A stretch of 64,000 bases of DNA from Malassezia furfur (lineage: Eukaryota): the NCBI GenBank assembly GCA_052055015.1, contig JBQJIT010000003.1; one strand, 5' to 3'. Each line of letters starts with the position of its first letter. The first letter of the stretch is position 1. The translations under genes were made by a program, and so were the position numbers. Positions 3,722 to 62,600 of the stretch are shown here, piece after piece. The notes beneath the pieces were generated by a model. That model had not been told where the DNA came from. It made no database searches and saw nothing but the letters and a program-made list of their open reading frames with translations.

Positions 3722-4566
3722 TCGGCGGTGCCGTACACGACGTGCAGGTGTTGCCCCACGATTGTGCGTCCATCGAGCGCACGCACGACGTGCTCGGCGT
3801 CGTGAGCATCGATGAGCGTCACCTGCGCGGCAAATGTCTCGTCGTTGGCGCGCGGCTCGACCCAGTCGACGTGCGCCACTGCCGCATAAGGTGCCACGAG
3901 CGCACGCACGTCTTCCGCGTCGATCGTTGCGCACGGCAACAGGCCGCTGATGACGACGCGACTGCACGGTCCGTGGGCCGCCTCGGCGGTGCTGCGCTGC
4001 ACGCGCGCATAGCTCACCTCCAGTGAGTAGCCGCACCACACGCGGCCCTGTAGGTGGTGCATCGCGTCGTGCGCCTCGCGCGCTGTGTCCATGTCGACGA
4101 ACCCCCGGCGGCGTGCCTGGCCATCGAGCATCGAGAGGATGACGCAGTGCCGCACGGTGCCGTATGCGGCAAACAACTTTTCTAGCTGTACAGTAGTGAC
4201 GTCCAAGGGGATATTGAGCACGTAGAGGTTCCTGGGGGCGGGCGCTGATGCGGGCGGTGCTGAGGGCGGCGTCGTGGCCGGCGCCGTGGGCTCGGTGGGC
4301 GCGTCGTGGCACACTGGATACACGTGGCTGCGTCAGCGCGCGACGTACAGCTGGAAGCCGGCGTACATGGTGTTGTTGCGCAGGCACGCAAACTCCATAT
4401 CGAGCTGGGTGTAAAGTGCAACGGTCGCCTTGAAGCGGCCGCACTGCTGCGACACGACGACGCTGCGCACCTCGAGCGGCTGGAAGAGCTGCGCGATCTC
4501 GGCGGGCGTCACGGACGGACGGAGTGGCTCAACCACCACACGGAACTTGGGCCTACGGCGTGTCAT
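3718..4566 (-). CDS. Multi-RRM RNA-binding protein (2 exons)
   Basis: ATG 4566; 21-nt intron 4328-4348 (gtacgtcgcgcgctgacgcag) joins the 4333..4962 and 3718..4323 ORFs in frame; central RRM with RNP2 NLYVLNIP and RNP1 RRGFVDM, flanked by two weaker RRM-like segments. Confidence 0.75.
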
Positions 4567-4881
4567 GGCGGAACGGGGCGTCTTGCACCCATGCCCTGGT
4601 ACCCGCCGCGGTTTGCGCGTGTCGCGCCCTGCTCCGCGGTGCCGCCGCCGCAGCGCGGCGTGCGCACGGACGTAGAAAAAACTTGCTCGGCCGACGGCGG
4701 GATCTGAGGAGGGCCCCGCGCTGCGTTGCCCAAACCCGTCGAGTGACTCCGCCCGCGACTCGCTGTTGCGTAGGGCGTGTGTGCAGTTCGAAAGAGCGCG
4801 TGCGTACCCAGCTTGCCTGTGCACGTTTCGCCGCATCGGTATACAGACCCCTGGGCCGCCGATTGCGTGCATCGCTCGAGC

Positions 4882-6924
4882 ATGCAGGCCGACGACTTCG
4901 TCCTCTTCGACGATGGGACGAACCCGGCGGGAACTCCCTCGCAGGGCACCATGTCGTCGCACGATTCACGCACGACTGGATTTAACAAACCTTCCTTCCT
5001 GCAGTACCGCGGGCAACTAAATGATACCTCGCCCGTCCTCGATGAGGCACCGTACAATCACTTTGCGCAACTCGGCCAAGCCGACCCGATGCTGATGCAG
5101 CGCGCGATGCGCGGCGGCGATCCGTACGCTACCGCACCGAATACGGCACATGCACGCACCTCGGCATCGCCCAACACCACCCCGCCCGAGCAGCCGTCGA
5201 GTGGCACGCTCGGCACCCCCCTGACCATGCTATCGCTCCAGGGCGACGATCGCAACCTGCCTGGCGCCCTGTTCCCCGACCTGGGCGGGCGCGAGGCCAA
5301 CGGCCAGATGAAGCCCAACTCGTACCTACCCCCCAAACAGACCCAGGCACAACACCCGCTGGCGCAGGGGTGGCCGTATCCGCCCAACCAGGCGCCGTCC
5401 AAAGACACGCTCGAGCCGGACGTCGACCAGCCATTTCTGTGGAACATGCCCGGCCACGCCCAGGAGCAGTGGAAACCATGGGGTCCGACGCCCCCAGGTG
5501 TTGCCAACGCCGATATGCTGCGCGCTGCCGCGGACCAGGCGGGGCAGGGCGCGCCGCGTCCACAGGGCGACGACCGACTCACTGTCTCGCCGCGCGAGCT
5601 ATATCTCGACGCCGACCGTGCCGCGACGCGCAACGCAGGGCCCAACCTGTTCCCGAGCCAGAATGCCCCGCCGCTGCTGCCGCCGCGCACGGACGACGAT
5701 ACGCTGCTCGCGCCGCCATTCGGCCTGTCAAGCGCCATGGAGGGCGGATCGAGCACCGAGGAAGAGGACGACGAGGACGAGCGACCATTCCCCTCGTCGT
5801 CGTACGCCGGCTCCGTGCTGGGCGCCACGGCGCCCAACGAGCAGCTGCTGGAGCAGTGGAGCCGCTCCATGTACGGCCCTGCCGGCGGCGGCGGCATGCC
5901 GTCCCAGCGGGTACCGCCGCGCGAGTGGGCGGTGACGGGACCGTCGTTCTCGGCGATGTCGACCTCGAGCGAGTCCGAAGAAGATACCCCAGCTCGGCCG
6001 CCACGGATGGGCGAGCGCCTGTCAGGCCACGCCGCGCAGTTTGCGAATACGGTGCCCGGCGCGCTGGGCGGCTACGGGTACATCCCCGGGAGCCAAGAGA
6101 GCGGCATGAGCGTGCAGAGCAACGACCTTGACTCGACTGGCGGCTCGCAGATGTCGGCGAGCATGACGGAGAGTGACACACCGGGTCACAACGACCGCGG
6201 GCGCAGCCCGTCGATCCTCAACACGGCGCAGGCCATTACTCCCGCCCCGAAACGCGCGTCGCGCGTGGGTCGCGACGCGAGCGACGAGGAGGAGGCGACA
6301 GACGCGCATGCGCGGCCATCGCGTGCCTCGGCGGATGCTGAGCGGCCACGCCAGCTACGCTCGTCAAGCAACACACGCCGCAAGTCTAGTGACCAAGACG
6401 TGTCGGGTGCGCGGCTTTCCGCGGGACCCTCGTCCGACTCGAGCAGCCCCGAAAACGACGAGTCGGACTACGAGCAGTCGCAGCTCGCGCACCACACGCC
6501 GCGCGCAGCGAACAAGCGCGGGCGCGCAACACGCGGCGCGGGCGGGCACGCACGCACCGCGTCAGGGCAGCAGTCGCCCACGGGCGCGACCGCCGATGTG
6601 GCCCGAGCGGCACAGGCCTCGTCGTCCTCCAACTCGTCCGCGATCCGGTGCGATTATGTGTCGCCAATCACAGGGCAGCGCTGCGGCACCGTGTTCCACC
6701 GCATGTACGACCTGGCGCGCCACCGCATCACGCTGCACCTGCGCGAGGAGGCGCAGCTCGTCAAGGAGGGCAAGCTCAAAGTGGAGCAATGCGTCGTCCT
6801 GGGCAAGGAAGTCGACGTGAAAAAGGCACTCGCGGAACTCGAGTGGATCTGCCGCGTGTGTGGCGCAAGCTTCTCACGCAAGGACGCCATGCTCCGCCAC
6901 GAGCGGTTGCGGCACCATCGTTAG
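4882..6924 (+). CDS. RPN4: C2H2 zinc-finger transcription factor, Rpn4-like
   Basis: Atypical first finger CDYVSPITGQRCGTVFHRMYDLARHRITLH plus CRVCGASFSRKDAMLRHERLRH at the C-terminus; acidic, low-complexity N-terminal region. This arrangement resembles Rpn4; orthology is inferred. Confidence 0.65.
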   Translation: MQADDFVLFDDGTNPAGTPSQGTMSSHDSRTTGFNKPSFLQYRGQLNDTSPVLDEAPYNHFAQLGQADPMLMQRAMRGGDPYATAPNTAHARTSASPNTTPPEQPSSGTLGTPLTMLSLQGDDRNLPGALFPDLGGREANGQMKPNSYLPPKQTQAQHPLAQGWPYPPNQAPSKDTLEPDVDQPFLWNMPGHAQEQWKPWGPTPPGVANADMLRAAADQAGQGAPRPQGDDRLTVSPRELYLDADRAATRNAGPNLFPSQNAPPLLPPRTDDDTLLAPPFGLSSAMEGGSSTEEEDDEDERPFPSSSYAGSVLGATAPNEQLLEQWSRSMYGPAGGGGMPSQRVPPREWAVTGPSFSAMSTSSESEEDTPARPPRMGERLSGHAAQFANTVPGALGGYGYIPGSQESGMSVQSNDLDSTGGSQMSASMTESDTPGHNDRGRSPSILNTAQAITPAPKRASRVGRDASDEEEATDAHARPSRASADAERPRQLRSSSNTRRKSSDQDVSGARLSAGPSSDSSSPENDESDYEQSQLAHHTPRAANKRGRATRGAGGHARTASGQQSPTGATADVARAAQASSSSNSSAIRCDYVSPITGQRCGTVFHRMYDLARHRITLHLREEAQLVKEGKLKVEQCVVLGKEVDVKKALAELEWICRVCGASFSRKDAMLRHERLRHHR

Positions 6925-6977
6925 GTAGACCCGGCCGCGCGCAGTAGACGTGCGTGTCATAGTGTGGAGGTTTTTCT

Positions 6978-6987
6978 ACGCGTCGCG
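6978..6987. promoter_or_regulatory. MCB-like element (ACGCGTCGCG) immediately upstream of RAD18
   Basis: ACGCGT core followed by CGCG directly before the ATG; the same 10-mer recurs before other G1/S genes. Confidence 0.5.
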
Positions 6988-8104
6988 ATGGACGCGCTGC
7001 TGGACCAGGTGAGCGACCCGAGCGACTGGCCCGAGGCTTGGGCCACGCTTCGGCCGCTTGATGCGAGCTTGCGTTGCGGACTGTGCTATGTATGTGCGGT
7101 GCTGATCCAGGACATTTTCCGCGCGCCCGTTGCCCTGCGCGAATGCGGGCACGTTTTCTGCTCGTCGTGCATCCGCACGCACATCAACCAGCCGGGCGGC
7201 TCAGGGTCGTTCTGCCCCAACTGTCGTCAAAAGAAGGCGTACGACAGTGAGCTGATGCCTCAGCTGGCACTCGAAGCGGCTGCCACGAGCTGGCGCACCG
7301 CACGGTACGTCGTCGCCTAACGCAGCGCCGACCTGGTCACCAAACAAAAGCGGCTCGACACGTTGGAACGCACGCGTGCGGCCACCACCCACGAGATACC
7401 CCCGCCCGTAACCGGCTCAGAGAAGCGCACCGCGGAGCCGGAGCATGGCCGCCGCCTACGCCCGCGCAAGGAGGAGACGGTGGATTACCGCAGCTTGCAG
7501 GGTATGTCGTGCGCGCCTCACGCAGCCGACGACACTGTCCAGTGCCCGATTTGTGCTCGAAGCTTTACTGCTGCCGACCTTAATACGCACCTCGACATGG
7601 GCTGCGACCCGTCGTCATCCTCTCCCTCGCCGGCGCCGGACCCTTTTGCGCACGCCAAACGACTCACACGGCCACAGTACCAGCTCAAATCCGAGAAGGA
7701 CCTACGAAAAATGCTTGGCGTACGTCTCTTCCTGACGCAGTCCCTCGGCCTGCCCACGCAAGGGCCCAAGGACCGCCTGATCGAACGGCACCGGCAGTGG
7801 GTCAACGTGTACAACGCCAACCTCGATGCCTCACCAGCAAATCGCGAATCGCTTGAGAGACTACGGCGCAACCTGCTGGCATGGGACAGGAACCAAGACG
7901 AGGTCGGGGTCCATGCTAAGGACAGGGTGTCCTCCGAGAAACAGTACCGGTCGTGGCTTGTATGTCGCCCTACTTATGCAGCATACCCATCGCAGCCAGT
8001 ATGCGGATCTGGCAGCCAAAGCCCGCGCATCACTTGCACCTGCTCCCAAGGCGGACGCGCCTACGGATGACCCCGACGCATCTTCTTCGACAGAATCGAG
8101 ATAG
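6988..8104 (+). CDS. RAD18: E3 ubiquitin ligase Rad18 (RING, UBZ4, SAP); 6 exons
   Basis: Introns 7090-7110, 7305-7325, 7502-7525, 7720-7740, 7960-7981. Spliced product gives RING CGLCYDIFRAPVALRECGHVFCSSC...CPNC, UBZ VQCPIC...LNTHLD and SAP-like LGSLGLPTQGPKDRLIERHRQW...YNANLD. Confidence 0.9.
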
Positions 8105-8211
8105 GCTCCGAAATACGAAAGGGCGTCGTTCTTGTGGAGGCCGAGTCGTGCATCTCTTGGCAACACACTACTTGGTCCGGACGGTCGGCGAGCGAACGCG
8201 CGAGGGTGGTC

Positions 8212-9699
8212 ATGCCCGATGACGTCGATGCAGAGAAACGCTCGCCACCGCCGTCATTAAGCGGTTCAGACGTTATAGCTCCCAAGCTGGTTATGCTGGA
8301 GCCGGGGCAAGACGCCCAGCAGTGGCCTTTGTACCGTAAAGTGTACACCAATGTGGTGCTTCTGTACATCACCTTGGTCAACACCTACGCATCGGGTGTC
8401 TATTCCCCGGGAGTTAAGGCGATGCTCGTTGACATCCCCATGTCCACCGAGGTTGCGCAGCTCGGCACCAGCTTGTACATGTTTGGGCTCGCGGTGGGGT
8501 CACTGTTTTGGGCGCCGCTCAGTCAGTCGCTGGGTCGCCGGCCCGTGTTCCTCGCATCGCTCATGGGAGTAACACTGTTCAATTTGGGTGTTTGTCTCTC
8601 CTCGCACATTCATTCGTTGATGATCTGCCGCACACTCGCCGGCTTTGCCGGCTCCGCCGCTTTTCCCAACGTCGCCGGCAGCATCGTGGACATGACCACT
8701 GAGCGCAACCGCATCCCATACAACACCATGTTCCGCTACATTACCTTCACTGGTCCCACGCTGTCGGCGTTTCTAGGCGCAGTCGCCGTGCGAGACTCGG
8801 ACTGGCGGTGGAATCTGCGATCAATTCCGATCATGGCGTTTGCAGGATTGGTCGTGTATGCATGCACGATCCCAGAAACGTTTGCACCCGTGCTGCAGCA
8901 ACGCAACGAACGGATTCGCGAGGAAAAGCAAAGACATGAAGACTTACTCCATCGCAGTGAGCATTGGCTCGCGCGATTCTTGCCACGACGCAACGCACTT
9001 CACTTAGTCGCTGCACAGGTCAAACAGTCGATGTATGTGCCGTGGATCCTGCTGGTCGAAGAACCCCTGGTCCTGATTGTGTGTTTCTATACATCAATGC
9101 TCTATGGCCTCTTGTATGGCTCTCTCCTCTTTTTCCCGGAGGTTTGGCACGACATTCGCGGCTTGACTGCTGTCCAAGTGGGATACACTTACGCGGCGGT
9201 GCTCGTTGGTTTTATTGTATCTGCATTGCTGATTGGGTGCATCATCCAGAATTGGGAGTACGGGCGCGCGTATGACAAGGGCACCAATACTCCGGAACTT
9301 CGCTTGCGCTCAGGAGAATGGTCCATCTTGTTCGTCCCGATCGGCCTATTCATCTTTGCATGGACAGCCCCATTTCCTCAAGTGCACTGGTCAGGGCCAA
9401 GTATCGGGGCCTTTCTCTTTGCATTTGGCATGCTGGCCGTATTTAACTCGTGGCTCGCCTACCTCACGGATACCTACAGCAACAATACGGCCGCCGTAGT
9501 GGGGCTCAACACATTTTGCCGCTCGGCAATCGCCGGCACGTTTCCCCTGTTCACGCGGCAGATGATCCACGCCATGACCTTCCAAGGCGCCATGTCCATG
9601 TTTGCCGGGATCTCAATCCCACTGACGTGCATTGGATTTTTGTTTGGCATCTATGGACATCGCCTGCGAAATCGCAGCAAGCATGCCGTCCACAAATAG
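8212..9699 (+). CDS. MFS transporter, DHA1 (drug:H+ antiporter) family
   Basis: About 12 hydrophobic segments; motifs WPLYRK, APLSQSLGRRPV, WRWN and PETFAP typical of DHA1. Confidence 0.85.
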   Translation: MPDDVDAEKRSPPPSLSGSDVIAPKLVMLEPGQDAQQWPLYRKVYTNVVLLYITLVNTYASGVYSPGVKAMLVDIPMSTEVAQLGTSLYMFGLAVGSLFWAPLSQSLGRRPVFLASLMGVTLFNLGVCLSSHIHSLMICRTLAGFAGSAAFPNVAGSIVDMTTERNRIPYNTMFRYITFTGPTLSAFLGAVAVRDSDWRWNLRSIPIMAFAGLVVYACTIPETFAPVLQQRNERIREEKQRHEDLLHRSEHWLARFLPRRNALHLVAAQVKQSMYVPWILLVEEPLVLIVCFYTSMLYGLLYGSLLFFPEVWHDIRGLTAVQVGYTYAAVLVGFIVSALLIGCIIQNWEYGRAYDKGTNTPELRLRSGEWSILFVPIGLFIFAWTAPFPQVHWSGPSIGAFLFAFGMLAVFNSWLAYLTDTYSNNTAAVVGLNTFCRSAIAGTFPLFTRQMIHAMTFQGAMSMFAGISIPLTCIGFLFGIYGHRLRNRSKHAVHK

Positions 9700-9716
9700 G
9701 CGACACGCGTCGGCAT

Positions 9717-10505
9717 TCAGAATTTCCCTGTGTAAATAACAAGGTAGACTTACCCCGAAGCAGATTCTTGATCATCTCACGCGCCGTGATATACGCCGTG
9801 TTGAAAAAGGTGGGGAAGTCGAGCGTAGACGAGATGGTGTCCGCGAAACCGAAAGGAAGCATGGGAGGGATCCAACCTAGACGGTGAGCGATTGACCTAC
9901 CTTGCGCAAGCTCCAATGCCCAGCATCCAGATTCAGGCATCATGTACTGCTTTACCAGACCGCGCGGGAGATAGTGCATCGCACCAGCCGGGTAGCGCTC
10001 GGGGGTCAGATCCCCGGCGCGGAATGCCTGTTGCTCTCCGTAAAGAATGTGGAAGTAGTCGTCCGCAGTGTGACGACCCGTGTGTCCCTCGGTACCAATG
10101 GGCGTACCAAAGAAGATCAGGTACTCCGTGATGGATGCATGGATGATGTACATGGAGCCCATTGCACCGCCGGCATTGTTGAACACCCATTCGGAGTGGT
10201 CCCGGAATGAGTTAGGGTTCAGCGTAGGACCGACCTTGGGGTCCTTGCGCAGCTCCGTAACAATGTGCTCAAAGATCCCATCGGTGTTGTTGCCGTGCTT
10301 GGCGATCGCTTCCTTGGCAATCGCATGCAGCTTGGGCTGGTCAAAGATGTAGAAAGAACGCTGAGTTAGTGCGGAGACGTACAATGTGCGCATCCACGTA
10401 GGTGAAAATGGCGACGAACGCTGCCAGAATGGTCGCAATAATGGCAATGCAGCGCATCCAGGAGCCAGAAGGCTTAGAGGCTTGCACCTTTCGCACACGA
10501 GGCAT
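9717..10505 (-). CDS. ERG2: C-8 sterol isomerase (Erg2/sigma-1 receptor family); 4 exons
   Basis: Introns 10361-10382, 9877-9900, 9728-9753. Motifs EWVFNNAGGAMGSMYIIHASITEYLIFFGT, GHTGRHTADDYF, ELAQGWIPPMLPFG; spliced C-terminus NLLRGKF*. Confidence 0.93.
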
Positions 10506-10651
10506 GGTGATGTTCGTGTGGAAAGAAGACCAAAATCAGCTGAGCGTGCTTAGATTAAATTAAGCGCATTAGGACTTATTCTCCACGTTACGGCCTGACA
10601 CCGGACCAAGTCCTATGCAATGACATAGCTATAATACATGATTTCGGCAGC

Positions 10652-11367
10652 TTAATCGGCTGCTGCCCATAGCTTTTCAGCCAAGTCAAACGAAGTCATA
10701 TCATTTTGCTTGCGCGACTTTTCATCCACATCAAAGGAGACCGCGACGTTGCGACGTGCCGAACGAACCAACAGAGACGTGATGGGGCCGTCTGGATTGG
10801 CTGGGTCACGAAAAGGTACGAATCCCATGCCACGGAACAGCTGCAATGCAAGACTGGATCAGTCACAACTCAATACATACGCGCTGCGGTCCATGCCAAC
10901 CTCTTGCTCGATGTCCCAGTTTTCCACCGCATCGCTTTCTCTCCGCAACTCTTCAATTTCCGTCTCCAGCATTGAGAGCGCTGCTTCTTGCTCGTTAATT
11001 TTCTTGGCCAAATCGAACTTCTCGTTCTCCATCTCCTTCATTGTGGTTTGGTGCGTCTCCAGTGAGTGCCAGTCTGCTGCAGACCGCGTCGAGCTCTCTC
11101 GCAATTCTGCTACAGATGCCTGCAATTCTGAGATTAGTCTTCGTACATACGGTCTAGCATCGCCTGTGTCTTGGCCCGCTCTGCTTCGCGCTCCTCCTTG
11201 GTCTCTTTCATCACGCGCGTATATTCGTTAATACGCGCGATTTCCTCATCGGGGATCAAAACAGAATTGAGTTCCTGAATCATCTCACTGCAAAAAAGGT
11301 CAGGCGTGTTCCACACGTACGGTAGACTTGCTTCCGGAATCGCCGAACTCGACTCGCGACGCGCCAT
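10652..11367 (-). CDS. SPC24: Kinetochore Ndc80-complex subunit Spc24-like; 4 exons
   Basis: Introns 11288-11320 (in frame, less certain), 11128-11150, 10854-10880. Coiled coil followed by LALQLFRGMGF...LLVRS...FDLAEKLW, resembling the Spc24 RWD domain. Confidence 0.7.
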
Positions 11368-11432
11368 GGTGTGAGCGAGCGGAGCGGGGGTGTTGGTCTC
11401 CACGCAAATGGCATCACGTGATTCAACAATGC

Positions 11433-11442
11433 AAAACAAAAA
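11433..11442 (-). terminator. RNA polymerase III oligo-T terminator of tRNA-Leu
   Basis: TTTTTGTTTT on the minus strand starting 3 nt after the tRNA 3' end. Confidence 0.8.
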
Positions 11443-11445
11443 GTG

Positions 11446-11550
11446 TGACAAGAGTGGGATTCGAACCCACGCCCGAAGACAACGGAAGCTAGAAGCTCTT
11501 ATATTAAGGAAACCTTAACGTTGCGCCTTAGACCACTCGGCCATCTTGCC
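11446..11550 (-). tRNA. tRNA-Leu(AAG) with 27-nt intron (11486-11512)
   Basis: Acceptor stem GGCAAGA/TCTTGTC, D-arm GCCGAGTGGTCTAAGGC, anticodon stem CAACG/CGTTG with TT-AAG-G loop interrupted after position 37, extra arm, T-arm GTGGGTTCGAATCCCAC; intron contains CCTTAA complementary to the anticodon loop. Confidence 0.95.
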
Positions 11551-11660
11551 TTGCAGTTGCAAGAATTAGTTACGTTCAACATACTTGAGGAGATACCTAC
11601 TTGACCTACAGGTACAACCGTTTGTTTGCTTGTGCTGCGAACGTGTGCAGGCAAGAGGCG

Positions 11661-13852
11661 TCACTGCGGTGCTACGGAACTATCCAATTGGCCCTGCCAT
11701 TCCGGCTTGATCACCCATTTGGATCCAGGCTTTTTGCTCTCGCGCGTCGCACACTCCTGTAGGCGTGTCTCGATGGCTGCTTTGCTGACGCCTTTTACGA
11801 TGGGACCAAAGTGCTCACGGAGATCCTCAAGGAGCGCGGGCTTTGACCTTGTAGAGCCTTGAATCAGTTTGAGTAGCTCGGGGAGATGGGTATCGGGGAA
11901 GTTGAACTTGGGCGTCCGTGCGGTGGTGGGTGCAGGAGTTGGGTTTGTCGTCGACGTGGGTGCAGCCGACTCGGTGGACTCTTTCGGCACTGTCTTTTCC
12001 TCATTCGACGGTGCCAGCTCGATAGTCGTTGAAGTAAATGTGAAAGGATCGAGGCCCACATAGGCATCATTGAGGAACTGGATGCGGTAGGGTATAAAAC
12101 TGTCGTGAGTTGGCTCGCCGAGGGTCTGTTCCCAGTGAGGTCCTGTGATATAGGGCACAAGCTTCGAGTCAAAGCGGCGCCCCAACAGCTTGATCTTCTT
12201 CTTCGGCTGAAGCACATTCACGTGTTTCTCCGGCTGCTTGCTCTCAGAGGCAAGATCCGGCATCCCATATTCGGCTTCTTCAGGGGGAACCTCCTCAATG
12301 ACTTCCAAGTCGTCTTCGAGCCAGTCATCCATCTCGGAATCGTCGTTGTCCGACCCAGCCATGCTCTCTTCATCCTCGCGATCATCCACCGCATCGACAT
12401 TCTCTCCCTCTTCCTCCTCCCACTCTGCATCGGAGTCGTACGAATAGTCCAGTGCAACGGGGTCTTGGCCAAACGGCTTGCGCGGCGTAATAAACGTCGA
12501 TGCCCGCGACCAAGTACCGACCCAGCCCGGTCGCCGGTCCGTTTGGAAATGCAAGAGCTTGATGGGCAACAAGCGGCGGTTGTTCAGTTTCTCCAGTTCA
12601 TGCTTGGTCTGTTCCTCGGCGTTGCCTCCCAGAACGTCCGACTCTTGCACGCATTTCATGATGTCCCGCACCGAAACAGGTGGATGAATACCACGCGGAT
12701 GTGCCTTGCATTGTGTCCCCATCCGTTTGAACTGCACGAGAAGCTCTTCCTTGTTATGCTCGCGTGCATCCATCTTGTGCAGAAGCGTATCATCAACTTC
12801 GTGATAGAAAGGGTTGAGATTGGCCATATTTTTGTACTCGCATGGTAGGAACGTACGCTGGAAATCGTTCTTCTCTTCTTCCTCCTTCTTGGGTGAGGCG
12901 CGCGTGGTCGGCTGCTGAAAGAAGGAGTTAAACAGACGCACTTGTGCCTGTTTGTCCTTTTCGTTTTTCTGTTCCTTGGCCTGACGTTCCTGTTCTTTGG
13001 CCTGGCGCTCCGCCTTTTTGGACTCGCGCAGCTTACTGCGCTCCGACTTTTCCTTCGGAACGGGCGTCACGGGCGGCGCTGGTGGTTCCGAGTCAGCTTT
13101 TGGCGCAGGGGTTGGGGTCACTGGCGCATCCTTGCCTTTGGCCACCTTTTTTCCATCCAGGAGTGACTGTCGCATGTCTTCGGGAAGTGCATCGAACTGC
13201 TCCAAGGCCTGCGATTTCGCTTGACCACGCTCTTCGCGGCGAGCAAGGAGTTTAGCAAGGTTTTCTTCGGGAAGCAAGCCCACGTCATTGACTTCCCAGC
13301 GCCATAGCTGGAGCGAAGGCACCATGCTCGAATCGGGTGGTGCATCAATACCGTAGTTGACGCGCTGCGCAATCGATTCGATGGTCGTCTGCAGGAGCTG
13401 AACAGGCAGTACGTCCACAACATCGCCATTTTCTGACGTCTTTTCCAACGCCTTATGTCCCTCGGGCAGGAGCGTCGCGCGAATAAGCTTGGCGAGCTCG
13501 GCTGCACTTTTGTCGCTGGGTGAGAAGGGAGGCGTACCTTTCTTGCGTCAGGCTGGCGACCACTGGTATATGTTCTTGCGGAATGGCATCCAGCGGCGCA
13601 TTTGCATGTTCAGCAAGGAACGACTGGAATCCGAGCACGGCTATGGTCAGGCTTACACGTACCGCGCAGCACCGGCATCGTTCGGTCCCAACCCACGCCC
13701 TTTTGGCGGAGGTTCAGGCGAGAGTTGCGTAGGGTGACGAGTGGGGGCGGTGTTCGTGCCTTCTTGGACGACTTGGGCGCCTCCTGTTGCTCGGTCGTCT
13801 TTCGCTTCGGCGTGCCGGGGCTGGGGGCCGCGTCCCCTGCGCGTTCAGCCAT
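11661..13852 (-). CDS. RLF2: Chromatin assembly factor 1 large subunit (Cac1/Rlf2/p150); 3 exons
   Basis: Introns 13641-13662 and 13516-13537 (22 nt each). KER-like charged region, PIP-like QVRLFNSFF, KLLHFQTDRRPGWVGTW, LDYSYDSDAEWEEE and a C-terminal winged-helix-like segment. Start at MAERAG is inferred. Confidence 0.88.
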
Positions 13853-13869
13853 ATCGGCTTCCGGAAAAG

Positions 13870-13891
13870 ACGCGTCGCGCGTTGCACGCGT
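13870..13891. promoter_or_regulatory. Tandem MCB elements in the CAC1/RFC2 divergent promoter
   Basis: ACGCGT at 13870-13875 (followed by CGCG) and 13886-13891 within the 82-nt spacer between two S-phase genes. Confidence 0.6.
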
Positions 13892-13934
13892 GGAATTAAA
13901 GATCGGCTGCCGATCGGCCGCAGGTTTCATCCTC

Positions 13935-15096
13935 ATGTCGGAAGCACGCGCCGAGAACCGGCCGTGGGTCGAGCGCTAGTAGGTGCTATGGCTTACTCAG
14001 TCGACCGAAGAACATTGATGAGGTCGCTTCGCAGCAACATGCGGTGACCATTCTCCGTAATGCGCTCAAAACAGCCAATGTAGGCAGCACGACTTACCCA
14101 GCTCCCGCACATGCTCTTCTATGGCCCGCCCGGCACAGGCAAGACGTCGACCATCCTGGCGCTGGCGCGCCAGCTGTATGGGTACGTGGAGTTTCCTGAC
14201 GCAGACCTGAGCTGATGAAATCGCGTGTCCTGGAGCTAAATGCGTCTGACGAGCGTGGCATTTCCGTGGTGCGCGAAAAAATCAAGTCGTTCGCCAAGAT
14301 GGCCGTCTCTGCGCCGAATCCGTACGTGATACGCTGACCGTGCAGCAACTATCCCTCGCCTCCGTACAAGATCGTGATCCTCGACGAGGCCGACAGCATG
14401 ACCCAAGACGCCCAAGGCGCGCTCCGTCGTATTATGGAGCAGTACAGTCGCACGACACGTTTTTGTCTCATTTGCAACTACGTCACACGGTATGTGGGCT
14501 TCTGATGCAGCATTATTGAGCCGGTCGCATCGCGATGCAGCAAATTCCGGTTCCGCCCGCTGGACCAGGCCAGCACGGAGGAGCGTCTGCGGTTTATTGC
14601 GACCTCCGAGGGCCTCAAGCTCAACGATGACCTAATACCTGCGCTGATTCGGGCATCAGAAGGGGATATGCGCCGTTCTATCACCTACCTGCAGTCTGTC
14701 TCTCGCCTGGCATCGGCGCGCGGCGGTGATGTGCGCGATATGACGGGCGATGCCGTGGCTGAGCTCGCGGGAATTGTGCCTCAGCGCATTATCGAGGCGC
14801 TCGCGCGGAGCGTCGGTATCGACACGGATGAAGACAGCGGACCGTGCGCCCATGGCTCGTCGTTTGACCGGATTTCCTCAGCGGTGCAGCATGTGGTACG
14901 CGAAGGGTATTCGAGCACGCAAGTGGTTCTTCAGCTGCACGACTATGTGATTCTGCATCCCCTGTTGAATGCGCGGCAAAAGACCAAGTGTGCACTGCAG
15001 TTTGGCGAGACAGACAAGGCGCTCATGGACGGCGGCAACGAGGCGCTCCAGCTGCTGCACCTGTGCCTCCAGCTCCACCAAGCCGTAGCCGTGTAG
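13935..15096 (+). CDS. RFC2: Replication factor C small subunit Rfc2; 6 exons
   Basis: Introns 13979-14000, 14080-14101, 14182-14204, 14322-14345, 14490-14510 restore [49 protein letters not shown] and [15 protein letters not shown]. Confidence 0.95.
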
Positions 15097-15126
15097 GATT
15101 AGTCATCTTTGCTTTCTTCGACCGTC

Positions 15127-15569
15127 ATGCCGTACGTGGCTCGCGTGCTAACCCTAGGCTCTACGAGTTGTTCTGCGTGGCGATTGCGTCTGCCGAATCG
15201 GCGCCACTGCGCGACCTGGTGCAGTCGACTTCGCGCCTCGTGCTCGACCACGGCGGTGTCGTGCGCAACGTGCAATATTGGGGCAAGCGGACCCTGCCGC
15301 AACGGGCACGGAGACACCAGCAATACCATACGGCCGGCGAGTAAGTTGCTTGCATTGCTGACCTTAGCTACTGGCTGATGCAGTTTGATACCAATGCACC
15401 GACGCTCAAGGTGCTCAACGACCGTTTCCGCCAGGACCCGCGCGTGGTGAAGTGGAACACCCTCAAGCTCGGCGAGAAGCTCCACGAGCTGGTACCGCCC
15501 GGTGCGAACGGCGGCACGACGCCATCGCAGGCGACGATGGGTGGCAAGTCGGTGGACTACCTGGGGTAA
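15127..15569 (+). CDS. MRP17: Mitochondrial ribosomal protein bS6m; 3 exons
   Basis: Introns 15132-15157 and 15341-15367; MPLYELFCVA...GGVVRNVQYWGKRTLP...GDYWLMQFD...DPRVVKW is the S6 pattern. Confidence 0.88.
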
Positions 15570-15589
15570 CTCGCCTTTGTATCTACACA

Positions 15590-16792
15590 TTACACTTGGC
15601 CGGCGAGCACGATCTGGTCAGTGACGTACTGTGAGTCGGCACACCCCAGTACCTCGTAGATCTGTGCGCTCTGTAGCCCCTTGATCCGCTCGCATTCGAC
15701 CGAGGTATAGTTTGCGAGCGCGCGGCCAACCTCGACGTCTTCTGATGCGCCCATGTCGGTGGTTGGCCGGCGCACAAGCAGGCGCACGGCCTGAAGCCGT
15801 TCCCAGTTGCCCTGCACGCCCACGACGCCGGCCGGAAGCAGCCGCCCGCCTGAGTCGCGGCTGCTGATCCGGTCGTACGCGCCCTGGTCAATAATGAGCG
15901 AGCCAACCGGGTGCATCGCATGCAGGATGCGCCATTTGCGTGCGGGCAGCCGTGACTGGCTCGGGAGGAACATGGTGTGAGCAGGCTCGGCCGCTGCAGC
16001 ATGCGCGCCATCATCCACCGACTTGGGCACGCCACGCTGGACAATGCGGAGGATATTTTCGGGGTGCTCGCCATTGAGAATCACGGTCGCGACGCCCGCG
16101 GCGGTCGCCAGTTCAGCGGCGATGAGTTTGGTCTGCATGCCGCCTGTGCCAAAGGAGGAGCCGAGCGTCTTGACGCTCGCGGCGCGGCGCGCCTCGTCGA
16201 CGCTCCGCACTATACTCAGGCGGCGTGCATCGGGGCACGTCCGTGGGTTGTCGGTGTACAGTCCGTCGACGTCCGTGCACAGGAAGAGGAAGTCGGCGTC
16301 GACGAGGCCCGCGGTGATGGCAGAAAGCGAGTCGTTGTCACCGAAGCGCATTTCGTACACAGAAACAGTGTCGTTTTCGTTGACAATCGGCACGGCGTCG
16401 ATCGTGCTGGACATGAGTGTCTCTAGGGTGGTGCGTGCGTTGTGGTAGCGGTTGCTGTCGGCGAGGTCGGTGCGTGTGACGAGCACCTGTGCGACGTTGA
16501 TGCCCACGACGCCGAACAGATTGTCCCAGAGCGACATGAGGCGCAGCTGGCCGAGTGCCGCGAGTGCTTGGCGCTGCCCGAGCTCCTTGGGCCGCTCCTG
16601 CATACCCATCCGCACGCGGCCGACGCCGATTGCGCCGGAGCACACGAGGATCACGCGGTGCCCAGCGGTGCGGAGATGCAGCACGGTCTCTACAATCGAG
16701 GCCATGATGCGGATCTTAGGCTGCATCGTCGACTCCGACAGGATCGACGACGTGCCGAGCTTGATGACCACCGTCTTGCCGCCTTCGCTCAT
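15590..16792 (-). CDS. PRO1: Glutamate 5-kinase (with PUA domain)
   Basis: VVIKLGTSS, VCSGAIGVG, PIVNENDTVS, FGDNDSLSA, FGTGGMQTKL, LLPAGVVGVQG. Confidence 0.95.
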   Translation of the reverse strand: MSEGGKTVVIKLGTSSILSESTMQPKIRIMASIVETVLHLRTAGHRVILVCSGAIGVGRVRMGMQERPKELGQRQALAALGQLRLMSLWDNLFGVVGINVAQVLVTRTDLADSNRYHNARTTLETLMSSTIDAVPIVNENDTVSVYEMRFGDNDSLSAITAGLVDADFLFLCTDVDGLYTDNPRTCPDARRLSIVRSVDEARRAASVKTLGSSFGTGGMQTKLIAAELATAAGVATVILNGEHPENILRIVQRGVPKSVDDGAHAAAAEPAHTMFLPSQSRLPARKWRILHAMHPVGSLIIDQGAYDRISSRDSGGRLLPAGVVGVQGNWERLQAVRLLVRRPTTDMGASEDVEVGRALANYTSVECERIKGLQSAQIYEVLGCADSQYVTDQIVLAGQV

Positions 16793-50599: not shown

Positions 50600-52554
50600 A
50601 TGGAGTGTGACCATCCCATCCAGGTGGGCGGGCTCTGTGCCGTATGTGGAAAAGAGATTGACGAGTGCGTGACCCAAATTGACGCAGGGAATCGTTCGGG
50701 GAGCAGACCTATGCAACGCTGCACTCCAGTGCGAGTGTCAAAGTGTCGCGCGCCGAGGCCGAGCGCATCGACCGCGAGAGCACCACACGGCTGCTCGAGG
50801 AACGCAAACTGGCGCTGATTGTCGACCTGGACCAAACCATCATCCATGTCACGGTTGATCCCACCGTGCGTGAGTGGGCGCAGGACGTGACAAACCCGAA
50901 CTGGGAGGCACTCAGTGACATCGTTGCGTTCCAGCTGGGCGCCGACGGCAAGACGGTGTCGCACGCGCCCGAGGCACTGCACAAGGACGAAGCCAAGTCA
51001 TTTGCAACCGGTGGTGATGAGGACGGGTGCTGGTACTTTGTCAAGTTACGTCCGCAACTCGCGAGCTTTCTTGCGGCGCTCGCGACCAAGTTTGAGTTGC
51101 ACGTCTACACGATGGGTACGCGGTCGTATGCCGACTGCATCTGCCGGATTGTGGATCCCACTGGTAAACTGTTTGGTGCGCGCATTTTGTCTCGCGATGA
51201 GAACGAGAGCATGGCTCAAAAGAGCCTCTCGCGCCTCTTCCCGGTTAACACGTCCATGGTGGTGATCATCGATGACCGCGCCGACGTGTGGTCGTGGTCG
51301 CCGAACCTAATCAAAGTCGAGCCATGTATGTGGTGTACTGACGCAGACGAGTTCTTTGTAGGCATTGGTGACATCAATGCGGGCCATCTGGGCCCTAGTG
51401 TGCCGACGCCGGCGGTGCCGGCGCCCGAGAAGGAGGCCAGTGCGCCGCTCGCCGAGCAGCAGCGGCAGACGATCCACGAACAGGTGGATGCGCGCCCGCT
51501 CGCGCGTCTCCAGGAGGAGAAGAATGCGGTGCAGGACGAGGGCAAAGCGGCGGCCGTCGCTGCGCCGGCGCAACAGCAGGCGGTGCTGCACAACGACGAT
51601 ACCAACCTGGACCTGATCCAGTCCGTACGTGTCCTGCGGCTCATCCAGCTTCTTGAACAGATCCACGATGAGTGGTATCGCGCGCACGACGCGCATAAGG
51701 ACGTTGACGTGAAGGACATCATCACGCGCATGAAACGCACAGTACTCCAGGGATGCGTGCTGGCATTCTCGGGGCTGATCCCGCTGAACGAGCAGCCAGA
51801 GCGGTACGTGGTGTGCTGACCCAGCTCCGCCATCTGGACCGCCGCGGAAGAGTTTGGCGCACAGTGCCGCCGCGACTTGGCCAAGGACGTCACGCACATG
51901 GTCGCTGCCAGCGCCGGCACCGCCAAGGCCGAGGAGGCGTTCCGGCGCGGCGGTGTGCACGTCGTGTTCCCCGCGTGGCTCAACGACTCGCTATGCCAGT
52001 GGGTGCGCCAGAGCGAGGAGCTGTACTGCGTGCCGCGCAGCGACCGACTCGCAACCCTCGACGCAGGTGCGCTGCAGGATTTGGCGTCGAGCGTGCACGC
52101 GGACCCCGAGAATGCCGATGAGGTCGCACTCGATGACCTGGCGAACATGGACTGGGGCGAGGCCGAGGATGAGGTGGAAGCCTTCCTCGACGACGACGAC
52201 GACGACGACACGAACAGCGAGCTGAGTCAGTCGCAGCACAGCGATGTGTCGGAGGCGCCGAGCGAGGTGGGCGACAGCGCCGATGATCTGCTGGGCTCGC
52301 CGCTGAGCCGCCGGCGGCACGCAGCGGCTCAGCGTGGCGGCCCCTCGAAGCTGCGGCAGAGCATCCTCGCGGAGGACGCCGAGGAGGGCAGCAGCGACAG
52401 CGATGCCTCGGCCGCACCGAGCCCCAAACGCGCACGCACGCAGGACCGCGTCGCGTCGCTGCGGGACGAGCGCTCGCCGCCCGAGAGTGAGGACGAAGGG
52501 TTTCTCGACGAGCTCGCACACGAGATGGAGCGCGAGCTCGGGGACGATCTATAG
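50600..52554 (+). CDS. FCP1: RNA polymerase II CTD phosphatase Fcp1; 5 exons
   Basis: Introns 50665-50687, 51326-51346, 51625-51648, 51804-51824. LIVDLDQTIIH catalytic motif, YTMGTRSYA, IIDDRADVW, EPYEFFVGIGDIN, BRCT domain, acidic tail. Confidence 0.95.
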
Positions 52555-57987: not shown

Positions 57988-58174
57988 GTCGAGTATATCT
58001 TTTGCACGCTGGCCTGAGCATCTGTTCAGATTGGATTGCAGAACGATCGCCGCATTGCTACCATACACGGAGGACCTCAAAATCCGTCTAGTCCCTAGCG
58101 TTTATGTCGCCCCCTCGTCGCAGTTTGGCCGATAACGCCGTTGCATCGTATGGCCTGTGCACGCTTCAATGCCA

Positions 58175-59348
58175 CTATGCGGCAAAATGAGTGGTGGCGC
58201 AATCACGCAAGCGCGCCGCGGCACTCTCTGCGGTAATATCGCGCTGTGGTTCGGCCATCATCTCAAACCTGTGTCAGCACTCGATCCACGTACCCGACCA
58301 GGAACTTGCGCACGGTGGCACTGCGCAACAATGGCGGGTAATAATGGACATGGAGCAGGGCGTAATCGCTGTCTCCGTCGTGCCCGTGTGGGGCATCGGC
58401 GGGAATAGGACGCTGGTGTAGGCCCATGGAGTAGGGGAAAGAGGTCTGGAACAAATTGTCAAACCGGCAAGCAACTTCACCCAGGATCGCCGCAAACGAC
58501 CCGACTTCACTCGTACTCAGTTCGGCCACCGACGAAACAAACCGCTGGTGCGGAACGACGAGTACCTCGAACGGCCAAACTGCCCAGTAGGGTACCAGCG
58601 CCACAAAGTCATCGTTGACTGTCACCACACGCGGCCTGCCTGGTGCATTTAGTTCGAGGTGCGCGTATTCTAGCAACAATGACGGACGGCCGTGGCTGTC
58701 GCGTGCGGACGCGGCGCTCGCGTTACGTGGATCCAGTGCAAATTTGCGCATACTCTCCATTTCTTTGGCAGGTTCATTCGGAATGTAATCCAAGCTCCAA
58801 ATTTGACCGTGTGGGTGCGGGTTACTGCACCCCATTGCGCTGCCTTTGTTCTCAAAGAACTGGATGTACCGCACAAACGGATTCTCTTTCGAAATCTTTT
58901 CGAACAAGTTCTGCCATGCCGTAACAACCGGTACAATGTTTTCCTGTGCAGAGAAGGGAGGAGTCGTCAGCTGTGCGAGGGTGAGATCGTGCCGTGGGTT
59001 GAAGCACAACACGTAGCAGCGGCCGCGGGCAGGCTCGATACGGAAGAGCCTCGACGCAATACTGTCGGACTCCTGCGGATTTTGATCGACCTCATCCGGT
59101 TTCAGTGCTGCATAATCATTTTCAAATACAAAGGTGGACGTGTACGCTTCGTTATGGGCGCCTGTCGCACGAGCATTGCCTGGGCAGAGGTAGCATTTTT
59201 CATCGTACTGCGGCAACTTGGTGATCTGTGAGGATTCCTGTGCACCCTGCCATGGCCTCTGCGTGCGGTGAGGCGAACATAGCACGAACGACTCTTGCAA
59301 CGGGTTCCAGCGTCGGTGCGGATGCTGTGTGGGGTCCAAGACGGTCAT
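58175..59348 (-). CDS. GAL7: Galactose-1-phosphate uridylyltransferase; 2 exons
   Basis: HRRWNPL, SPHRTQRPWQG, CYLCPGN, FENKGSAMGCSNPHPHGQIW; 25-nt intron 58269-58293 restores RKFLVGFEMMAEPQRDIT. Confidence 0.95.
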
Positions 59349-59725: not shown

Positions 59726-60462
59726 ATGGAGGGGCACGAAGGGCATGCGATGCAGATGCATGAAGGCCATTCCATGCCAGGACACGACGGTAATGGCACC
59801 GATGCGTGTATCATGACGATGAGCTGGAACTCTCATACTCGTAATGTATGCATTATAACCCCTGCCTGGCATATTCGATCATCACAGGGTTTTGTGTTGT
59901 CGATGTTGGTGATTCTGGGGATCAGTGTCGCGTACGAGTACCTCAAGTGGGCCATGCGGTGCCTCGATGTGGCGATTGTGCGACTTGAAGATGCACAATC
60001 CAACCTGGGTCCGCGCGGAGCTGGAGACAGCGATGCGGACCCTCTCAGTACGACCGCTTCTCTTCGGCGGCCGCGGACACGCAATGCCAAACGAATCATC
60101 CCCATGACGTACGCCGATCTGGTTGCGAACGATTCGGCAGAGCGTGGGGAAGATACCGGTTCCTTATCGCCGAAGCGTACGACCAAGTCGACTTCGTGTG
60201 CGCTATTGCGCCTGTTGTACGTGACCCACTCTAACCCAGACCGCTTGGGCTACAGACGCCGTCGCGGCTTCATGGTGTGCGGTCTCTGCTGTATGGCCTA
60301 CAAGTATCGATTGCGTGCTTTTTGATGCTCGTTATGATGACCTATAATTCATGGATGATCGGCGCCATTGTGGCCGGTGCGATCCTGGGCGCGTTTTTCT
60401 ACAGTCGTGCGCCCATCGGTGCTGCCGTGGCATTGGACGACAAGAGCACCGCATGCCACTAG
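59726..60462 (+). CDS. Ctr-family copper transporter (Ctr2-like); 2 exons
   Basis: His/Met-rich N-terminus, CIMTMSWN...CII...WHI, YEYL; 23-nt intron 60217-60239; MLVMMTYN (MxxxM) and GxxxG motif; ends ACH*. Confidence 0.9.
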
Positions 60463-61532
60463 AAGGGAGGCTCGTACTTGCGAAACACGACGCCGGCCTC
60501 GGCAAAGATCTGGGCACTGCGGTCATCCATGCTGTACTCGAGCTGGTATACGACCTCCATCACACCGGTCTGGACGATCTTTACGGCACATCGTAGACAT
60601 GGACATCTGCGTTAGTCAAACACATACGTGTTGCAATAGATAAGTGTGCCTTCCGCGCCGCCGCGATCACGGCCCAGTTCCAGGAGCGCGTTTTCTTCAG
60701 CGTGCAGACAAAGGCACTCGTCCAGGTTGCTTCCGCATGACGCGCTTTCGTTGCACCGAGCACACCCGCCCTCGTTGCAATTCGTGAGCCCCCGAGGCGT
60801 TCCATTATACCCCGTTGAAAGCACGCGGTTCTTACGCACAATTACGGCCCCGACGCGACGCTTCATGCAATTGGATCGCAAGGAGGCGAGAGAGCACAGT
60901 GACACAAAGTAAGCATCCCACGTTGGACGCAAGCGATGCATGGATGTGAGCGAGAGGGTGTCGAGGTGCGCGTACAGTTCCGGAAGTGTGCGCATGGTAT
61001 TAGCGATCCGCAGCTGACTCCGCGAGAGCAGAGCAGCAAGAGCGCCGTTGCCTGACGGCATGGAAGCCGAGATAAGCGACCCACTTTGGTGCAAGAACGA
61101 CAGGTTTGAGACGTCCTTGGAAAGGTGCTGTGCATCTGCATCACTCGTGTGCGTCGTGCCATACATCACGCTGTCGTCGTGCGCCACGAACGAGGCAAGG
61201 TCCAAGGTGTCGCGTGCATCAGAGGCAGACGCGTCGAGTCGCGCCTTGGCGCGCGTCCAACGCAGCATCATCGGCGCCTCGATTCCGACGAGCAGGAAGA
61301 AGGGTCGCTTGTCGAACATGCCCACCAGTTCCGTTGTATCAAGATCCAGCGTCACATAGTTGGTCCGCCAGTGGGCCGTGACGTGATGGAGCATCGCTTC
61401 GGGTGAATCGAAATGCAATACACCCGGCGACTTGGGTGCTAATGTGATCTGCGTAAAATCATGCTTGTCTATAAGGTAGTTGGCGACCGAAGATTTGCCG
61501 GCACACGCCAGACCCACCAAGGCGACGAGCAT
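60459..61532 (-). CDS. DCD1: dCMP deaminase with an N-terminal P-loop kinase-like domain; 2 exons
   Basis: RPTWDAYF, SNCMKRRVGA, TGYNGTPRG, CLHAEENAL; 21-nt intron 60607-60627 restores YCNTCPCLRCAVKI. Confidence 0.95.
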
Positions 61533-61543
61533 CGAGGAGCAGG

Positions 61544-61566
61544 ACGCGTCGCGAGACGCGTCGCGT
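61544..61566. promoter_or_regulatory. Duplicated MCB-like element upstream of DCD1
   Basis: ACGCGTCGCG at 61544 and again at 61556 within a 49-nt spacer. Confidence 0.6.
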
Positions 61567-61581
61567 TACTTATTTCCCCGA

Positions 61582-62600
61582 TCATGGCTCGAGCACGTCG
61601 AGATCGCCAAGGCCTTTGGTGATGTACGTAGGTACCGCCGGAGTGTTCTCCTCGTGCACCTCTTCCTTCTTGGAAATTCCAGTAAGCACCAGGAGGGTAT
61701 CCAATCCACCATGGGTGCCAAATGCAATGTCTGTGTTGAGGCGATCCCCTACCATGAGCGTGCGTGACCTGTCGAACGAATGACTAGCGAGAATAGCATC
61801 GAGCATGGGCTGGTTGGGCTTGCCAATCACCGTCGGTTCACGCTTGCTCGCTTCACGGATGCCTATCCAGCAAGAGCCCGCGCCGGGCCATGCGCCAGAT
61901 TGGGACGGGAAGGTAGTGTCATCATTCGAGCACAAGAAGTAACATCCACCACCCTTCTGTCCGCTTTGGACGTCCTCGGTAGCATTTTCCCGGGTCAGGT
62001 AGCGAAATGCCTTGGCCAGCTTGGCGTAGTTCAGGTCTGTATCGATGCCACAAAGTACAGCTGCGACGCTGTCATCCATAGCTCCGGGTTCGAGCAGGGG
62101 GGCAAAGTCGGTGCCCTCGATCTTGACCTGCTCCTTGGGATCCTGCGTCAGTATTGGGACGTACCGTTCCGCCAATGTGCTGAATGCCGACGGCATCAAG
62201 TTCGTCCTCCAGTCCGGCCATGCCGACCACGTACACTTTGCGGTCCGAGGGAAACTTTAGCACTTCCTTCAGATACAGAGCGGACGCCGACGCTGAGGAG
62301 AATACCTCGTTCTCGGAGGCCTGGATCCCGAGGTCCTTGAATCGCTTGAGCAAGGTTGCCCGGCTCTTGCTTGCGTTGTTCGTTACGAACAGCACACGCT
62401 TGTTGCGCTTGCGAAGTTTCTCGAGCACTGAAACAACGCCAGGCAGTGCCTCAGTACCGAACCAGAGCACACCATCACAGTCTGTGTCAGACTGGAAACC
62501 TACCGAATAGAAAGTTGTCGTAGCGGTCGACGAGATCCTTGTAATCCGAGGGCTCTTCAAGGTGGCGGTAGGTCCCCCGGGGTACGGTATGCTCAGTCAT
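61582..62600 (-). CDS. PHO13: HAD-IIA phosphatase (4-nitrophenylphosphatase/phosphoglycolate phosphatase); 3 exons
   Basis: Introns 62482-62503 and 62143-62164 restore FLFDCDGVLW and GGTDP; FVTNNASKSR, GKPNQPM, MVGDRLNTDIAFG. Confidence 0.93.

Follow-up and report, generated by a model that had tools for sequence, protein, structure and literature searches.

A 64,000-nucleotide (nt) stretch of Malassezia furfur DNA (GenBank assembly GCA_052055015.1, contig JBQJIT010000003.1), referred to here at its full length as the window, raises the question of what the many segments of 21-31 nt that interrupt its protein-coding genes are, and how so little sequence could be recognized and removed. As read from the DNA and from comparison with orthologous proteins, these segments are very probably extremely small U2-type GT-AG spliceosomal introns of M. 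furfur nuclear genes, which fall in a size regime already known for the genus. The curated list holds 46 GT-AG micro-introns and candidates in 19 genes (Table 1), with a median length of 23 nt, a mean of 23.3 and a mode of 22; the individual lengths are 21 (9), 22 (12), 23 (8), 24 (6), 25 (4), 26 (2), 27 (3), 29 (1) and 31 nt (1). A preliminary description of the window had counted 48 introns in the same number of genes; 46 of them were recovered, including the outermost two at 4328-4348 and 62482-62503, while one 23-nt intron and the single 33-nt intron were not. It had also held that most of the introns are required to restore reading frame or invariant motifs, and this is borne out by 19 introns anchored by homology (RFC2 5, RAD5 5, FCP1 4, APC10 4, ERG2 1) and by 21 more that are needed against a frameshift or an in-frame stop, the last six being signals-only candidates. 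Detection depended on coding context within these 64 kb, with introns of untranslated regions (UTRs) and any tail of long introns remaining invisible to it.

The homology evidence comes gene by gene. In RFC2 (coding sequence, CDS, 13935-15096), removal of five introns (22 + 22 + 23 + 24 + 21 = 112 nt, the very figure given in the preliminary description) yields a protein of 349 amino acids (aa) that is collinear with 16 full-length orthologs across PWVERYRP, Walker A, the DEAD-like box and SRC, and a premature stop follows if any one of the five stays. For RAD5, tblastn with 11 orthologs (6 other genera, 5 annotated Malassezia) gave a frame change at each of the four 22-nt introns in 11/11 cases, with the ortholog protein coordinates left continuous; the 21-nt intron at 45828-45848 corresponds to a 7-residue gap in 15/15 aligned orthologs, and all five annotated Malassezia RAD5 proteins share the same five junctions. 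The residues that FCP1 would gain from 51326-51346 (7) and 51625-51648 (8) are missing in 14/14 orthologs, and the intron at 50665-50687 joins to the gene a first exon that encodes the conserved CxHPxQxxGxCAxCG motif. In ERG2, the segment 9877-9900 is matched by gaps totalling 8 residues against solved sigma-1 receptors (4 distinct receptors matched, 2 alignments shown). The four-intron model of APC10 reproduces a DOC-domain segment conserved in five other Malassezia proteins, and P0392, the APC10 of another M. furfur strain, fits all four introns and gives one continuous Pfam ANAPC10 match of 160.5 bits. Throughout the 19 homology-anchored introns, GT..AG are the only boundaries that give collinearity.

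Two tests that make no use of orthologs point in the same direction. A loose motif (GT[AG]NG[TC]..YTRAY..YAG, at most 40 nt) was matched 43 times in the window, against 11.1 +/- 3.5 expected from 50 dinucleotide shuffles. In a stricter scan, each good donor was paired with the nearest downstream CTNAY-N1-4-YAG module and the counts were compared with 40 shuffles: the 21-24 nt class contained 31 pairs against an expectation of 0.3 and the 25-31 nt class 11 against 0.6, the longer classes lying at expectation, with 1 vs 1.4 at 32-45 nt, 1 vs 3.3 at 46-80 nt, 6 vs 5.8 at 81-150 nt and 20 vs 20.2 at 151-400 nt; the same scan of the window gave zero pairs at 20 nt or below. The length distribution is accordingly narrow and single-peaked on its lower bound, extending over 21-31 nt with none at 20 nt or less and no excess above 31. 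The second test was a homology-free frame test based on a codon log-odds model trained on 13 long open reading frames (ORFs) of the window, in which 15 of the 16 candidates with coding sequence on both flanks stayed in phase only on removal, compared with 9 of 430 control segments (GT..AG, 20-27 nt, length not a multiple of 3). The single miss was an overlapping alternative donor lying 2 nt inside one RAD5 intron (47354 vs 47356). At this place (47354-47356, minus strand) RAD5 carries a tandem donor, GTGTGT, with two 5' splice sites 2 nt apart, of which only the 22-nt version is in frame; splicing may be error-prone or alternative here.

The anatomy of the splice signals was established from 39 strongly supported introns; the ERG2 intron at 9877-9900 joined the list later and stands outside these 39. 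At the donor, G1 and T2 are invariant, position +3 is A in 35 and G in 4, position +4 is C in 27 and T in 8, position +5 is G in 39/39, and position +6 is T in 36 and C in 3. A spacer of 6 (9 introns), 7 (14) or 8 nt (7) or longer, never shorter than 6, leads to a branch box of the form YTNAY in 39/39 and CTNAY in 37 (CTGAC 16, CTAAC 5, CTCAC 5, CTGAT 4, CTTAC 3, others 6). The branch adenosine lies at intron position 16-18 in most cases, and its distance to the 3' end is 5 nt in 29/39, 6 in 5, 7 in 3 and 8 in 2; the gap between box and YAG is only 0-3 nt, and position -3 is C in 36/39. A polypyrimidine tract is absent from the 39 introns, pyrimidines making up a fraction of 0.47 of the sequence after the box and 0.51 of the spacer; the introns have a GC content of 0.56, and a single T-run of at least 4 occurs among them. 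The consensus first proposed for the window, GTRYGT...CTRAC-(0-3 nt)-NYAG with no polypyrimidine tract, is thus confirmed in these introns. The GT..AG ends, the extended donor GTRNGT able to pair with U1 and U6, and the YTNAY box are those of U2-type introns. The polypyrimidine tract, a metazoan-type 3' signal, is lacking; the U2-type assignment nevertheless stands because such a tract is not a defining feature of fungal introns.

The same dimensions account for a hard floor at 21 nt, because 6 nt of donor, 6 of spacer, 5 of branch box and 4 more add up to 21. An intron built in this way would consist of little beyond three signals, namely GTAYGT, CTNAY after a spacer of at least 6 nt, and usually NYAG. 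It is proposed that U1 and then U6 would read GTAYGT, and that U2 would pair with CTNAY, bulging its A; by what is known of U2-type splicing, the lariat would form at the CTNAY adenosine, and the second step would use the AG placed 3 nt past the branch box. Because there is no room for a pyrimidine tract, the choice of the 3' splice site would rely on a composite box-plus-YAG signal. Such a spliceosome would need no polypyrimidine tract and would accommodate a branch A about 15 nt downstream of the 5' splice site, and we infer that it is adapted to micro-introns.

The alternative that survives best concedes the class and questions its margins: at least one of the six signals-only candidates (7090, 7502, 7720, 9728, 15132 and 60217) could be coding or leader sequence that matches by chance, which we consider rather unlikely. 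Three of the six are multiples of 3 without a stop, so retention is possible, and the other evidence on this side is that three have weak or negative flank coding scores and that the gene finder gave two similar candidates in RAD5, 47895-47930 (36 nt) and 45897-45977 (81 nt), which the orthologs refuted. Against this, both refuted calls were without a proper branch box and acceptor, chance would place fewer than one strict motif of these sizes in a window, and the good-signal, stop-free candidates with a length that is a multiple of 3 were true in all five testable cases (45828, 50317, 51326, 51625 and 9877).

Several points weigh against the reading of the whole set as spliceosomal micro-introns. 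Besides the six signals-only candidates, the two ortholog-refuted RAD5 calls show how signal and coding score can mislead when used by themselves. The support for APC10 derives from predicted Malassezia proteins, though the Pfam profile is an independent line in agreement with it. At 23.3 nt, the mean of the window falls below the published genus means of about 30; the corresponding difference between the window median of 23 and the published M. restricta value of 30 may reflect detection bias or a real clade difference. Finally, the case for removal of the window segments comes from DNA and protein comparison, and this is also what would favour the idea that the segments are kept, as parts of pseudogenes or as small assembly insertion errors with coincidental GT..AG ends. 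That idea is scarcely credible, given that random indels would not carry GTAYGT, CTNAY and YAG in a fixed register nor be 100-fold enriched in one size class, that removal restores invariant motifs in five conserved genes, that codon bias is intact on both flanks of the segments, and that a sister species has introns of similar size for which its genome report gives RNA-seq support (PMC5389616). Removal without a spliceosome, whether at the DNA level in the manner of the internal eliminated sequences (IES) of ciliates or through a protein endonuclease of the kind that acts in tRNA or HAC1/XBP1-type splicing, has nothing specific in its favour beyond the question raised by the very small size, and it can be practically dismissed, as the combination of GT..AG ends with an extended donor of U1/U6 type and, at a constant distance, a branch box of U2 type is a spliceosomal signature, the sole tRNA-type intron seen sits in a tRNA gene, and TA-bounded ends, bulge-helix-bulge motifs and stem-loops were not found, judging from ends and consensus without fold analysis.

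Spliceosomal introns of this order have been reported for other members of the genus. The curated M. sympodialis annotation lists 5,350 introns in 4,493 genes with a mean of 30 base pairs (PMC5389616 Table 2), and the same report gives RNA-seq support for 99 % of the introns and peptide support for 87 % of genes, its annotators having set intron ranges down to 10 nt (PMC5389616). For M. restricta, an average of 37.2 and a median of 30 are tabulated (PMC9241646 Table 1), the prediction having used minimum intron lengths of 20 and 15 (PMC9241646, PMC6473144), and a review mentions the 'very short introns' of Malassezia genes (PMC7426719). The caution in the preliminary description, that Malassezia introns were known to be short, was therefore well placed: the size regime is in print in these sources (PMC5389616, PMC9241646, PMC7426719), and the present result is a confirmation and refinement, not a discovery. 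According to the published table, intron density in M. sympodialis is similar (5,350 in 4,493 genes vs 46 in 19 intron-bearing genes here). The window set, in which UTR introns are unseen, is tighter and shorter (median 23, 21-31 nt) than the values tabulated for M. sympodialis (mean 30) and M. restricta (median 30), and the available portions of those two accounts describe neither a 21-nt floor nor a branch A 5 nt from the 3' splice site.

Comparable architectures are found in unrelated lineages. As described for Paramecium and Nyctotherus, the window introns form a narrow single peak around 25 nt, near the physical minimum, and are GT-AG and spliceosomal (10.1101/2021.08.05.455221, PMC5014332). 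Unlike ciliates, which have AT-rich introns in AT-rich genomes, the window introns have 56 % GC in a 65 % GC genome and carry an explicit, strong branch box. In Paramecium, stop-free introns with a length that is a multiple of 3 are reported to be under-represented; among the multiple-of-3 introns of the window 8/18 are stop-free, a small number obtained with biased detection. Microsporidia, as summarized in a recent report, are a fungal lineage that likewise has introns below 30 nt in compact genomes (PMC13644364), and their short introns are spliced inefficiently, with a median of about 25 % (PMC13644364), whereas RNA-seq support of 99 % is stated for M. sympodialis (PMC5389616). Malassezia, unlike microsporidia, is a free-living, culturable basidiomycete with about one intron per gene. 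Trichomonas and Giardia have a fused branch-point/3' splice-site motif, and the introns of chlorarachniophyte nucleomorphs measure 18-21 nt. The window introns share with these unrelated lineages a constant and very short separation of branch box and AG and a length close to the minimum; the branch A lies 7 nt from the 3' end in Trichomonas vs 5 nt in 29/39 window introns, and nucleomorph introns are shorter than those of the window.

No analysis of Malassezia splice-signal architecture or of its spliceosome was found in the Creative-Commons PMC and bioRxiv literature, which is weak evidence of absence, and no explicit Malassezia description of the 21-nt floor or of the 5-nt branch-to-AG distance was found there either. 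In the relevant passage of a 2026 report, the lineages listed with introns below 30 base pairs are ciliates, Microsporidia and Dicyemida, Malassezia being unlisted (PMC13644364), and a fungal intron survey treats M. sympodialis, where it mentions it, as intron-poor (PMC8476143). It is tentatively suggested, with more doubt than confidence, that Malassezia, and especially M. furfur, holds the shortest known introns of the Dikarya, that their minimal architecture is unanalysed in print and that the genus has been overlooked by the intron-evolution field.

Micro-introns also bear on the quality of deposited gene models. The M. furfur APC10 protein P0391, an exact spliced match to the window, removes 50459-50487 and 50317-50340, two of the four introns of the model; it reads through the 23-nt intron at 50233-50255 and regains frame by a wrong 34-nt intron at 50103-50136. 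This misreading swaps the conserved HVSIYLDCRRDDSYTPTKILVKAGTHPYDLVEVRY for unrelated residues, leaving about 40 out-of-frame residues within the DOC domain, and the ANAPC10 match of P0391 falls into two stretches with 100.2 bits vs 160.5 bits for P0392. Four more Malassezia APC10 entries (P0396, P0397, P0399 and P0407) are likewise disrupted there, P0271, the Malassezia sp. model of FCP1, is without the first exon, and annotated RAD5 lengths within the genus range over 887-1034 aa (P0002, P0005, P0007, P0008 and P0020). Deposited or assembled Malassezia models of FCP1, RAD5 and APC10 thus look truncated or broken near micro-introns, and the prediction that gene predictors would miss some of these introns is realized in the errors of P0391 and P0271. 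As to the procedures used, funannotate is described as the tool for recent Malassezia genomes, with M. sympodialis proteins and, where it existed, RNA-seq as guides (PMC10410736), and the Augustus web server, after training on M. restricta, as the source of an earlier M. furfur set (PMC9040865). For the older M. globosa annotation an average intron of 76-79 nt and junction support of 76-85 % are tabulated (PMC4634964 Table 2); older annotations such as this one missed micro-introns. Among the relatives of the last RFC2 exon (P0121-P0270) many are fragments of 180-260 aa that start just before the query-matched region, and these are probably ORFs the size of one exon, called on fungal contigs where introns were not modelled.

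Micro-introns therefore still corrupt public Malassezia proteomes, and the model errors are passed on to proteomic, phylogenomic and drug-target studies of these skin commensals and opportunists; the remedy would be to predict genes with a minimum intron length of 21 nt and with the composite CTNAY-NYAG signal. What the present analysis adds is the precise architecture and the annotation errors demonstrated above. If the tentative suggestion on the shortest dikaryan introns is right, a culturable, transformable yeast would offer a model for a full spliceosome working on minimal introns, in which U2AF, SF1 and the U1 5' end may show matching changes. The floor at 21 nt and the spacing of 5 nt between branch and 3' splice site would be direct readouts of the steric limits of a fungal spliceosome, limits that are testable in an organism with existing genetic tools.

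Table 1. Positions of the micro-introns and candidate micro-introns in the window, with the observation bearing on each.
Position	Strand	Length (nt)	Gene	Status	Observation
4328-4348	-	21	RRM-protein gene	intron	multiple of 3 with in-frame stop; flanks phase-consistent
7090-7110	+	21	gene ~6963-8104	candidate	multiple of 3, no stop; signals only
7305-7325	+	21	gene ~6963-8104	intron	in-frame stop if kept; phase-consistent
7502-7525	+	24	gene ~6963-8104	candidate	multiple of 3, no stop; signals only
7720-7740	+	21	gene ~6963-8104	candidate	multiple of 3, no stop; signals only
7960-7981	+	22	gene ~6963-8104	intron	frameshift if kept; weak flank coding scores
9728-9753	-	26	near ERG2 3' end	candidate	good signals; downstream exon only 11 nt; weak
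9877-9900	-	24	ERG2	intron	8-residue gap vs solved sigma-1 receptors
10361-10382	-	22	ERG2	intron	frameshift if kept; strong phase-consistent coding on both flanks
10854-10880	-	27	gene 10652-11367	intron	in-frame stop if kept
11128-11150	-	23	gene 10652-11367	intron	frameshift if kept
13516-13537	-	22	CAF-1 subunit A	intron	frameshift if kept
13641-13662	-	22	CAF-1 subunit A	intron	frameshift if kept
13979-14000	+	22	RFC2	intron 1	junction gives PWVERYRPK, 16 orthologs; retention gives stop at aa 15
14080-14101	+	22	RFC2	intron 2	junction restores Walker A; 16 orthologs
14182-14204	+	23	RFC2	intron 3	junction collinear with 16 orthologs
14322-14345	+	24	RFC2	intron 4	retention gives stop at aa 112
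14490-14510	+	21	RFC2	intron 5	junction collinear with 16 orthologs
15132-15157	+	26	5' region of gene after RFC2	candidate	signals only; upstream coding score negative
15341-15367	+	27	gene after RFC2	intron	in-frame stop if kept
22155-22177	+	23	gene 22003-23273	intron	frameshift if kept
23788-23814	-	27	gene 23292-24510	intron	in-frame stop; phase-consistent
23953-23977	-	25	gene 23292-24510	intron	frameshift; phase-consistent
24604-24627	-	24	gene 24550-27125	intron	in-frame stop if kept
24701-24723	-	23	gene 24550-27125	intron	frameshift if kept
31327-31357	-	31	ORC-subunit gene, 5' end	intron	longest of set; frameshift if kept
33225-33249	-	25	mitochondrial-carrier gene	intron	frameshift if kept
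33312-33336	-	25	mitochondrial-carrier gene	intron	frameshift if kept
45548-45569	-	22	RAD5	intron	frame change in 11/11 orthologs
45622-45643	-	22	RAD5	intron	frame change in 11/11 orthologs; junction GGVGLNLTAANHVW
45828-45848	-	21	RAD5	intron	multiple of 3, no stop; 7-residue gap in 15/15 orthologs
47335-47356	-	22	RAD5, between HIRAN and SNF2 parts	intron	11/11; junction FYYNPYIGDLS
48012-48033	-	22	RAD5	intron	frame change in 11/11 orthologs
50103-50125	-	23	APC10 (CDS 50506-49676)	intron	DOC segment in 5 Malassezia proteins; P0392 ANAPC10 match continuous
50233-50255	-	23	APC10	intron	missed by deposited P0391, its ANAPC10 match broken in 2
50317-50340	-	24	APC10	intron	multiple of 3, no stop; out of deposited CDS; orthologs contiguous
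50459-50487	-	29	APC10	intron	frameshift if kept; out of deposited CDS
50665-50687	+	23	FCP1	intron 1	joins exon encoding CDHPIQVGGLCAVCG, N-terminal motif of 13 orthologs
51326-51346	+	21	FCP1	intron	multiple of 3, no stop; 7 residues missing in 14/14 orthologs
51625-51648	+	24	FCP1	intron	multiple of 3, no stop; 8 residues missing in 14/14 orthologs
51804-51824	+	21	FCP1	intron	in-frame stop if kept; junction collinear with 14 orthologs
58269-58293	-	25	GAL7	intron	frameshift if kept
60217-60239	+	23	Ctr copper-transporter gene region	candidate	signals only; flank coding ~0
60607-60627	-	21	dCMP/cytidine deaminase gene	intron	in-frame stop if kept
62143-62164	-	22	PHO13-like HAD hydrolase	intron	frameshift; strong phase-consistent coding on both flanks
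62482-62503	-	22	PHO13-like HAD hydrolase	intron	frameshift; phase-consistent

The gene finder recovered micro-introns together with many spurious 'introns' of 40-150 nt at gene edges or in antisense models, none of which was kept. Four further segments (33638-33664, 40866-40892, 44006-44035 and 3879-3905) were rejected on poor signals, with no ortholog test. In the putative 5' leader of an AhpC/TSA gene, two adjacent GT..AG candidates on the plus strand, 41902-42033 (132 nt) and 42034-42168 (135 nt), have a good donor and CTGAC-N-YAG and belong to a size class without excess over shuffles; should they be genuine, they would represent UTR introns of far greater length. A missing 5' exon had been suspected for AhpC and was rejected, the CDS starting at an ATG inside the ORF.

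The window encodes typical fungal housekeeping genes, and its Pfam assignments (an RFC small subunit, RAD5, FCP1, APC10 and a PHO13-like HAD hydrolase, and further ERG2, CAF-1 subunit A, GAL7 and others) agree with the gene names first given to it. The long RAD5 exon is 95 % identical to an M. brasiliensis protein and 81 % identical to one of M. yamatoensis, and over the last APC10 exon a deposited M. furfur protein is matched at 100 % identity; these identities place the DNA in the genus Malassezia, in agreement with the first guess. A metagenome scan with a genus-level RAD5 alignment gave 79 loci, 0 of them from Malassezia, the best at 48 % identity, and all 79 were set aside. No small nuclear RNA was found by Rfam in the 64-kb window, the sole Rfam match being one tRNA gene (11446-11550, minus strand, 47 bits), which is uncalled by ARAGORN in its bacterial setting; its anticodon loop is interrupted by about 27 nt that form a nuclear tRNA intron of the ordinary kind. 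GC content per 4-kb bin ranges over 54-69 % across the window; it is 0.54-0.59 at 8001-16000, which contains the MFS transporter, ERG2, tRNA, CAF-1A and RFC2 genes, vs 0.62-0.69 elsewhere.

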